Origin: a virus
Taxonomy: Duplodnaviria > Heunggongvirae > Uroviricota > Caudoviricetes
Length of the DNA: 4,815 nt
IMG/VR virus record: IMGVR_UViG_2681813229_000016
Strand: one strand, 5' to 3'
Part shown: positions 1,166 through 1,510 of the stretch, one piece after another
Layout: the number at the start of each line of letters is the position of its first letter
How positions within the stretch are numbered: the first letter of the stretch is position 1
Position numbers and translations under genes: made by a program
The notes under the pieces: generated by a model
Databases searched by the model: none
The model's input: the letters and a program-made list of their open reading frames with translations, nothing else
What the model was told of the DNA's origin: nothing

Positions 1166-1510
1166 TCAGGCCAGCGGTGGAGTCTTCAGAGAACCCGTAA
1201 TTATTCCCGGTAGTTTTCCTCTGTAGGTTATCAACACATCCTGCGCCTCTAAAATTACGGGGCGCTTTTCCGGCAACGGACCATCCCCTTCACATAACCC
1301 GGCAGCAACATCCATGAAAAACTGCTTCGCCTGCTTTTTCGCCTCAGCTTCGTAAAACTCCAGCGTGGCACCTTCAGTACGGTCAAGACTAATCGCCACA
1401 TCTGGCAACAACAGTGACGGATACCCACCAATTTCCGGTGCCACAGTAACAGTAATCTTATCCGGGTAATTATTTATCCCTTTAACACCCAGTTCGTATT
1501 TTTTCTTCAT
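1166..1510 (-). CDS. Hypothetical soluble protein (114 aa) between holin and endolysin; possibly DUF1327/YdfR-like
   Basis: ATG at 1510..1508 lies 4 nt after the pinholin stop, with SD GGGGGAG inside the holin 3' end (translational coupling). Product has no TM segment or signal peptide. Size (~115 aa) and position between holin and lysozyme match the E. coli prophage DUF1327 family (e.g. YdfR of Qin); this is recalled, not verified by search. Confidence 0.6.
   Translation of the reverse strand: MKKKYELGVKGINNYPDKITVTVAPEIGGYPSLLLPDVAISLDRTEGATLEFYEAEAKKQAKQFFMDVAAGLCEGDGPLPEKRPVILEAQDVLITYRGKLPGIITGSLKTPPLA

Follow-up and report, generated by a model that had tools for sequence, protein, structure and literature searches.

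The stretch of DNA analyzed here (the window; all 4,815 nt taken from IMG/VR record IMGVR_UViG_2681813229_000016) comes from a lambdoid Escherichia prophage of the Stx-phage-like kind and spans part of its late region, in which all relevant genes lie on the minus strand. The closest complete genomes were those of O103:H2, O121, and O157:H7 strains, at approximately 98% identity, and no complete genome was found that aligned to the window in a single piece. Read along the minus strand, the window contains the following features:

4806-4639, minus strand: DUF3927 ORF
4631-4465, minus strand: match to the STnc100 sRNA family (Rfam, 101.6 bits against a gathering score of 47)
4324-2387, minus strand: sialate-O-acetylesterase-like protein, 645 aa (DUF1737, SASA, and DUF6645)
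2239-2057, minus strand: DUF1378 gene
2022-1750, minus strand: DUF826 gene
1674-1515, minus strand: remnant of a P21-type class II holin (pinholin), matching Pfam PF04971 at profile positions 26-63 only
1525-1518, minus strand: Shine-Dalgarno sequence of ydfR, GGGGGGAG, read from the sequence and lying within the final holin codons
1511-1517, minus strand: holin stop codon TAA (1517-1515) and the 4-nt gap behind it (1514-1511)
1510-1166, minus strand: ydfR-family ORF of 114 codons plus stop (DUF1327; ORF list, Pfam, PHROG)
1286-1510, minus strand: DUF1327 core domain, codons 1-75 (structure model, dN/dS, stand-alone relatives)
1166-1285, minus strand: low-confidence tail of ydfR, codons 76-114 plus stop (pLDDT, dS, alignment with FWSEC0007)
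1165-1116, minus strand: endolysin leader spacer, 50 nt
1115-582, minus strand: phage lysozyme (endolysin R), 177 aa (Pfam PF00959, E 1.5e-24)
426-244, minus strand: small hydrophobic ORF, 60 aa (PHROG 1115, function unknown)
231-100, minus strand: small hydrophobic ORF, 43 aa (PHROG 4906, function unknown)
91-1, minus strand: start of an Rz-like spanin gene

The STnc100 match sits just upstream of the esterase gene and probably represents the late-promoter leader region of lambdoid prophages. The esterase gene itself is intact in the window, and is of the kind annotated in Stx phages as 9-O-acetyl-N-acetylneuraminic acid deacetylase (yjhS). The lysozyme shares 167 of its 177 residues (94%) with the R protein of VT2-Sakai, and begins with a hydrophobic stretch that, going by its N-terminal sequence, appears to be of the signal-anchor-release kind. 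In the interval between endolysin and Rz, where the window has the 43- and 60-aa ORFs, an ant-like antirepressor gene is found in BP-4795, LSU61, and VT2-Sakai. No promoter-like site was detected on the minus strand between 1000 and 2400, and no convincing terminator was found 3' of ydfR. Because of this missing promoter match, and because the STnc100 match lies upstream on the same strand, ydfR would be read as part of the late operon.

The subject of this analysis is the ORF between the holin and the lysozyme gene. The first-pass annotation had described a soluble ORF of 114 aa, ending 50 nt before the endolysin and belonging to a DUF1327-like family. Each of these points was borne out, and the strand, which had been left unstated, is minus. 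The ORF matched DUF1327 (PF07041) over residues 1-112 with a score of 151 bits against a cut-off of 25 (E 1.1e-44) and PHROG 406 with an E-value of 2e-63, and it is 99% identical to the NCBI “YdfR family protein” cluster P0003. PGAP gives the same label to the gene at this position in LSU61, BP-4795, and others, while no NCBIfam model was found for the window protein. The product, of 12.3 kDa and a pI of 5.5, is predicted to be soluble and contains no hydrophobic segment, the top 19-residue Kyte-Doolittle window reaching 0.89. Judged by these matches, the ORF is intact and belongs to the YdfR/DUF1327 family, and the identification is secure. As such, the finding is an ordinary one: ydfR is an already known, widely annotated prophage gene that is functionally uncharacterized, it is annotated in thousands of E. 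coli genomes, including at the same place in the Qin prophage of K-12, and the holin of the prophage in the window is already broken.

The protein consists of two parts. AlphaFold2, run on a diverse alignment, modeled the DUF1327 core (residues 1-76) with a pLDDT of 91.3 and a pTM of 0.80, as three strands (6-14, 18-27, and 38-43) and a helix (50-71) in a beta-beta-beta-alpha arrangement. Residues 72-114 of the full-length model had a pLDDT below 50. Foldseek searches with both models against the PDB, and with the domain model also against BFVD, returned no significant relative (best E 0.04-0.2, with unrelated proteins as the top named hits), so the fold offers no support for a function. A profile search of the PDB sequences found no relative either. 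A likeness to dsRNA-binding domains (ADAR1 dsRBD3, DCL4, and RNase III) was considered and rejected as too weak, at E 0.3-0.7 and TM 0.3-0.43.

The same division was found in the family as a whole. An N-terminal domain of approximately 72 residues is common to its members, and stand-alone members of 72-76 aa match this domain only. After about residue 80 the proteins diverge, with total lengths of 72 aa (Evi), 103 aa (Qin type), 104 aa (mEp460), 113-116 aa, 176 aa, 183 aa, 263 aa, and 287 aa, and no Pfam match was found for the C-terminal extensions. The short forms stop right after ...KTPP, with differing last residues (LA, KW, ESQP, or E). The possibility that the 176- and 183-aa forms are gene-calling artifacts upstream of the ATG was rejected, as their extension is C-terminal. 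Two database entries, P0001 and P0002, contain internal duplications of the domain.

The domain occurs as two deeply diverged allele types, beginning with MKKKYEL and MTQNYEL, respectively. Between them, dS is approximately 1.5 and dN approximately 0.42, with a dN/dS of 0.25-0.30; by this measure the domain of ~75 aa is under purifying selection, and the same was seen between alleles that lack the convergent partner gene described below. Its G+C content is 46%, against 53-55% in the neighboring genes. Codons 76-112 gave a dS of 0.05-0.2 and, on few sites, a dN/dS of 0.1-2.1. A tail conserved by selection was rejected, since synonymous divergence is low here as well, so that the likeness reflects recent mosaic ancestry; the tail is apparently unconstrained. 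A 457-nt segment of FWSEC0007 is missing from the window, the gap falling exactly behind ...AAGACTCCACCG (codon 112), and a CC(A/G)CCG motif is present at both edges of this segment. Codons 113-114 and the stop codon of the window gene lie past this point and come from the lysozyme leader, and codon 112 marks a recombination or deletion junction.

On the other side of ydfR, the window holin lacks 56 nt after codon 11 relative to LSU61 and phage BP-4795, with the junction near 1640-1642. This deletion removes most of the first transmembrane segment and shifts the frame, so that the ORF starting at the true holin ATG (1674) terminates at 1569-1567, approximately 57 nt short of the ydfR ATG. The 3' holin frame can be reached solely from a GTG at 1703, which has no Shine-Dalgarno sequence. 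The deletion junction was absent from 80 close IMG/VR relatives and from the best-matching complete genomes, and one junction-free IMG/VR relative is 99.9% identical over 1.6 kb. Given its absence from the 80 relatives, the lesion looks private to this prophage and recent.

The ydfR ATG (1510-1508) lies 4 nt past the holin TAA, and GGGGGGAG ends 7 nt ahead of it, in agreement with the coordinates first proposed for the start and for a Shine-Dalgarno sequence in the 3' end of the holin gene. Translational coupling to the disrupted holin had been proposed as well. This stands in part: the holin is indeed disrupted and the Shine-Dalgarno sequence is in place, but termination-reinitiation is impossible in the window copy because the frameshifted holin reading stops ~57 nt before the ydfR ATG, which leaves only the gene's own Shine-Dalgarno sequence. 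No RNA structure was detected at the holin-ydfR junction (fold z-score 0.57).

At the junction, GGAG(A)G followed by TAA was kept in all 12 loci compared, and ydfR begins 4 nt past the holin stop in 96 loci and 3 nt past it in 2. VT2-Sakai carries no ydfR; its 94%-identical lysozyme gene is preceded by the same ...GGGGAGAGTAA motif and begins 4 nt past the end of the holin gene. The lysozyme gene of mEp332 (DLP12 type) likewise stands directly behind the holin gene. These two phages agree with the earlier remark that canonical S-R cassettes have no gene at this point, and because their endolysin directly follows the holin, ydfR occupies the start otherwise used by the endolysin. By this comparison, the arrangement of stop codon, 4 nt, and ATG, with a Shine-Dalgarno sequence in the end of the holin gene, is simply the usual S-to-R junction; it belongs to the holin and has been taken over by ydfR. 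Four database entries (P0010, P0069, P0091, and P0092) are holin-YdfR fusions of 173-187 aa that arose from frameshifts or small deletions at the 4-nt junction.

The nearest relatives of the window gene are ORF47 of BP-4795 and its equivalents in YYZ-2008, Stx2 phage 86, H-19B, and Stx1a and Stx2c phages, all 114 aa long and 97-99% identical to it. Their flanks are identical to those in the window (holin, 4-nt gap, 50-nt spacer, lysozyme), except that they have an intact holin of 71 codons where the window holin carries the 56-nt deletion. YdfR of the K-12 Qin prophage (UniProt P76160, 103 aa) belongs to the same Pfam family and has the same N-terminal domain, and in the Qin-like phage PhiR42_1 the gene has the same place between P21-type holin and lysozyme, with the same 4-nt junction. 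The K-12-type tail ...EKLSEKVESYLQHQYSFKIENPANKHERPHHKYL is unrelated to ...GLCEGDGPLPEKRPVILEAQDVLITYRGKLPGIITGSLKTPPLA of the window, however, and Qin-type ydfR overlaps the lysozyme start, whereas in the window the two are separated by the 50-nt spacer.

Literature bearing on the function of YdfR was limited to a single study of the K-12 protein (PMC13232886, RNA Biology 2026), DUF1327 being otherwise named in one more paper, in passing. In that study, YdfR was isolated by a two-hybrid screen and bound RNase E 1-597, for which its residues 1-72 were sufficient, and it co-purified with RNase E 1-598 (PMC13232886). The protein also carried DNase-resistant nucleic acid, for which the authors could not exclude a contaminant holding RNA, while few transcripts responded to its overproduction, which did not impair growth (PMC13232886). 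As for the envelope-integrity claim concerning a ydfR mutant that is stated in PMC13232886, the term does not occur in the main text of PMC3879167, the screen cited for it. A published phenotype of a phage ydfR mutant was not found in the literature. The domain of the window protein is ~45% identical to the K-12-type domain, and at this distance the binding of RNase E might not transfer to the window allele.

Based on these data, we tentatively read the ydfR product as a late-expressed cytoplasmic accessory factor that acts through its domain of ~75 residues rather than as a lysis timer, a reading that we hold to be possible, if a little short of probable. The gene would be an accessory insert in the late (lysis) operon, placed at the start that is normally the endolysin's behind a P21-type holin. 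The 75-residue beta-beta-beta-alpha domain would be the functional unit, and the disordered tail of ~40 residues the stump of a hypervariable C-terminal region, ending at codon 112. YdfR would be made in the cytoplasm late in infection, alongside the lysis proteins, and would act on a cytoplasmic host target and not on the holin-endolysin machinery. By homology to K-12 YdfR, the best candidate for such a target would be the catalytic half of RNase E and/or RNA. In the window, since the adjacent holin is dead, the cassette is defective and translation of ydfR depends on its own Shine-Dalgarno sequence.

Other proteins offer a partial parallel: RapZ and the RraA/RraB regulators bind the catalytic half of RNase E. 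K-12 YdfR behaved like RapZ toward RNase E 1-597/598 in the two-hybrid and co-purification assays, and RNA came along with it (PMC13232886), but YdfR has no sequence or fold similarity to RapZ or RraA/RraB. The link to RNase E makes a concrete test of the role of ydfR possible. Such a test would concern many Shiga-toxin phages (Stx1a, Stx2c, H-19B, and BP-4795), in which ydfR lies inside the operon that controls toxin release by lysis.

The genomic behavior of ydfR also recalls that of morons, which were defined for lambdoid phages as accessory genes inserted between conserved late genes. Like a moron, ydfR is present or absent between collinear genes, its domain is low in G+C, and it occupies differing places across phages. 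Unlike a moron, the window gene lacks its own promoter and terminator, being transcribed as part of the late operon. At other loci, the classic moron layout belongs to a convergent neighbor and not to the DUF1327 gene.

These neighbors came to light among distant relatives of the domain, which were recognized by profile search, precomputed Pfam hits, and reciprocal tblastn to E. coli ydfR genes. The stand-alone relatives of 72-76 aa are 24-39% identical to the window domain. The 9 distant relatives that were looked up all lie outside lysis cassettes: 6 or 7 are found in lambda-like tail modules, where they adjoin genes for tape-measure, M, L, K, or I proteins or tail chaperones, one follows endolysin and spanin genes ahead of terminase genes, and the last comes from a fragment that is too short to give its position. 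In 8 of the 9, an ORF of 70-99 aa (once 182 aa) lies on the opposite strand, 10-45 nt past the DUF1327 gene. Such ORFs also occur between ydfR and the lysozyme gene in the E. coli loci Ecol_656, FWSEC0007, 2H10/PhiR63_1, and Stx1_499, while the window has none. The convergent partner measures 90 aa in Ecol_656, 87 aa in FWSEC0007, and 98 aa in Evi. The convergent ORFs that were located are the following:

L004, 2744-3040, opposite strand: convergent ORF
L006, 5324-5587, opposite strand: convergent ORF
L007, 2565-2837, opposite strand: convergent ORF
L102, 2000-2260, opposite strand: convergent ORF
L088, 3273-3821, opposite strand: convergent ORF
L091, 693-992, opposite strand: convergent ORF
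L094, 3247-3486, opposite strand: convergent ORF
L097, 1340-1639, opposite strand: convergent ORF
L099, 942-1232, opposite strand: convergent ORF
L114, 754-966, opposite strand: convergent ORF
L115, 2744-3019, opposite strand: convergent ORF
L117, 337-576, opposite strand: convergent ORF

Some of these partners recur. Family A (98-99 aa) occurs together with DUF1327 in Evi's lysis cassette and in the tail modules L091 and L097, and family B (91-96 aa) does so at at least 2 further positions. The partners show a dN of 0.14-0.27 with saturated dS, which marks them as real genes under strong purifying selection. In several loci, the two stop codons are separated by hairpins of the form AAAGCGGC-loop-GCCGCTTT, flanked by A and T runs. 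No Pfam match was found for the partners, and PADLOC returned no defense-system match for the partners, for YdfR, or for its long forms. Five copies in tail modules (L088, L091, L092, L094, and L097) have in common a conserved leader, AAGCCGAAAGGCAGGAG, which lies 25 nt ahead of the ATG of the DUF1327 gene. This leader could fold into a GCC-GAAA-GGC tetraloop hairpin that ends with the Shine-Dalgarno sequence, and may mark the left boundary of a cassette.

It is conceivable, although we lean against it, that the DUF1327 domain is the invariable half of a mobile two-gene cassette not described so far. Such a cassette would consist of a DUF1327 gene in late orientation, a short hairpin, and a convergent gene for a small helical protein drawn from several families. 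It would land at differing points of siphophage late operons: in Escherichia lambdoids in the gap that separates holin and endolysin, and elsewhere between tail genes or upstream of the terminase genes. The coliphage copy would have captured the holin-coupled start of the endolysin, and would decay to partner-less stumps like that of the window. Taken with the reported binding of RNase E and RNA, the domain could govern what becomes of the pair's sense and antisense transcripts, which overlap. This pattern among the distant relatives may be the sole part of the finding that is new.

If such a cassette exists, the window gene might be its orphaned half, in which DUF1327 works with a convergent small protein (for example, a regulator, antidote, or partner) that has been lost here, leaving a copy that may be functionless or only partly functional. 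The convergent ORF beside 8 of the 9 distant relatives, the recurrence of families A and B with DUF1327 at differing positions, the evidence that the partners are real genes, and the hairpins between the paired stop codons all speak for this. So does the comparison with Ecol_656, FWSEC0007, and 2H10, which keep ORFs there: it is exactly that segment, of 457 nt, that the window lacks. We nevertheless consider this explanation unlikely. Partner-less forms are very common and intact, with clusters of 464-1129 member sequences and representatives in viable phages such as BP-4795 and mEp460, and the purifying selection on the domain extends to comparisons between partner-less alleles. Moreover, the partners come from several unrelated families without Pfam or PADLOC matches, and adjacency may merely mark an insertion hotspot.

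A role in the timing or regulation of lysis had been suggested in the first-pass annotation, from the fixed position of the gene inside the lysis cassette. In that case, YdfR would be a cytoplasmic regulator that tunes the triggering of the pinholin or the timing of endolysin release. There is precedent, as T4 RIII, Mu gp25 releasin, and P1 LydB are soluble or accessory phage lysis regulators, RIII being a soluble antiholin cofactor whose logic is analogous. Like them, YdfR is a small extra protein encoded in or beside a holin-endolysin cassette, although no homology between YdfR and any of them was detected. The position was confirmed for Escherichia, as was the conservation in E. coli prophages noted there: in a sample of 99 Escherichia-type loci, dominated by close relatives, a holin lay upstream and a lysozyme downstream in 95, the other 4 were cut by contig ends, and no exceptions were found. 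All 95 fully covered loci thus read holin-ydfR-lysozyme, with a P21-type holin and an invariant junction. Every Escherichia copy of ydfR being in a lysis cassette is also what a lysis role would predict; YdfR would be made in step with the holin, and viable phages have kept the gene.

The step from position to lysis timing was not supported, and we regard such a role as quite improbable. The junction is the generic S-to-R junction, and the gene is optional: a P21-type holin was found in 436 phage records and YdfR in 101, so that ~77% of the holin records have no ydfR, YdfR does not obligately co-occur with this holin, and ydfR is dispensable for lysis with it. In this, ydfR differs from the genes for T4 RIII, Mu gp25, and P1 LydB, being absent from most phages that have the same holin. 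The distant relatives lie outside lysis cassettes. YdfR has no membrane segment and no similarity to the holin, in contrast to dual-start antiholins, and its hypervariable C-terminal half, in proteins of 72 to 287 aa, is unlike that of a tuned regulator. The experiments on K-12 YdfR point to RNase E and RNA, and its overexpression gave no growth or lysis phenotype (PMC13232886). Here, the position of a gene says little by itself about function: the “holin-coupled” junction comes from the endolysin, and the domain moves to unrelated genome positions together with a convergent partner.

The insertion could also act in cis. From the end of ydfR at 1166, a 50-nt spacer (1165-1116) leads to the lysozyme ATG at 1115; this leader ends in ...cctgataaatatcc-ATG (1116-1132, minus strand) and has no obvious Shine-Dalgarno sequence and no GGAG-like motif. 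It is nonetheless conserved across ydfR-bearing cassettes, those of BP-4795, Evi, mEp460, and FWSEC0007 among them. In Qin-type cassettes, the lysozyme start overlaps the ydfR stop (ATGA), and where ydfR is absent, the endolysin relies on the Shine-Dalgarno sequence embedded in the end of the holin gene. The distance from the ydfR start to the lysozyme start took 17 different values, from 307 to 1303 nt. That the insert mainly uncouples endolysin translation from the holin and alters the holin-to-endolysin ratio, with the protein itself of little consequence, would fit both the exchange of a holin-embedded Shine-Dalgarno sequence for an SD-less leader or an overlap and the variable distance, but it is very improbable. 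The 75-aa domain is under purifying selection where synonymous divergence is saturated, and it is conserved in unrelated genomic contexts, which shows that the protein itself is selected.

The family is narrow: a profile search of 1.84 billion representative proteins recovered 92 clusters only. Within E. coli, the gene is frequent, and 1413 of 5426 complete genomes contained the holin-ydfR-lysozyme stretch at a coverage of at least 80%. The 101 phage records with YdfR homologs included BP-4795, YYZ-2008, Stx2 phage 86, H-19B, mEp460, Evi, and many Stx1a and Stx2c phages. When one genome per GTDB species was searched, the gene was found in Escherichia and Shigella only, apart from 2 metagenome bins. 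These bins, labeled Veillonella parvula and Bacillota (L110 and L112), contain contigs with a Qin-type holin-ydfR-lysozyme cassette, which we suspect to be E. coli contamination or binning errors.
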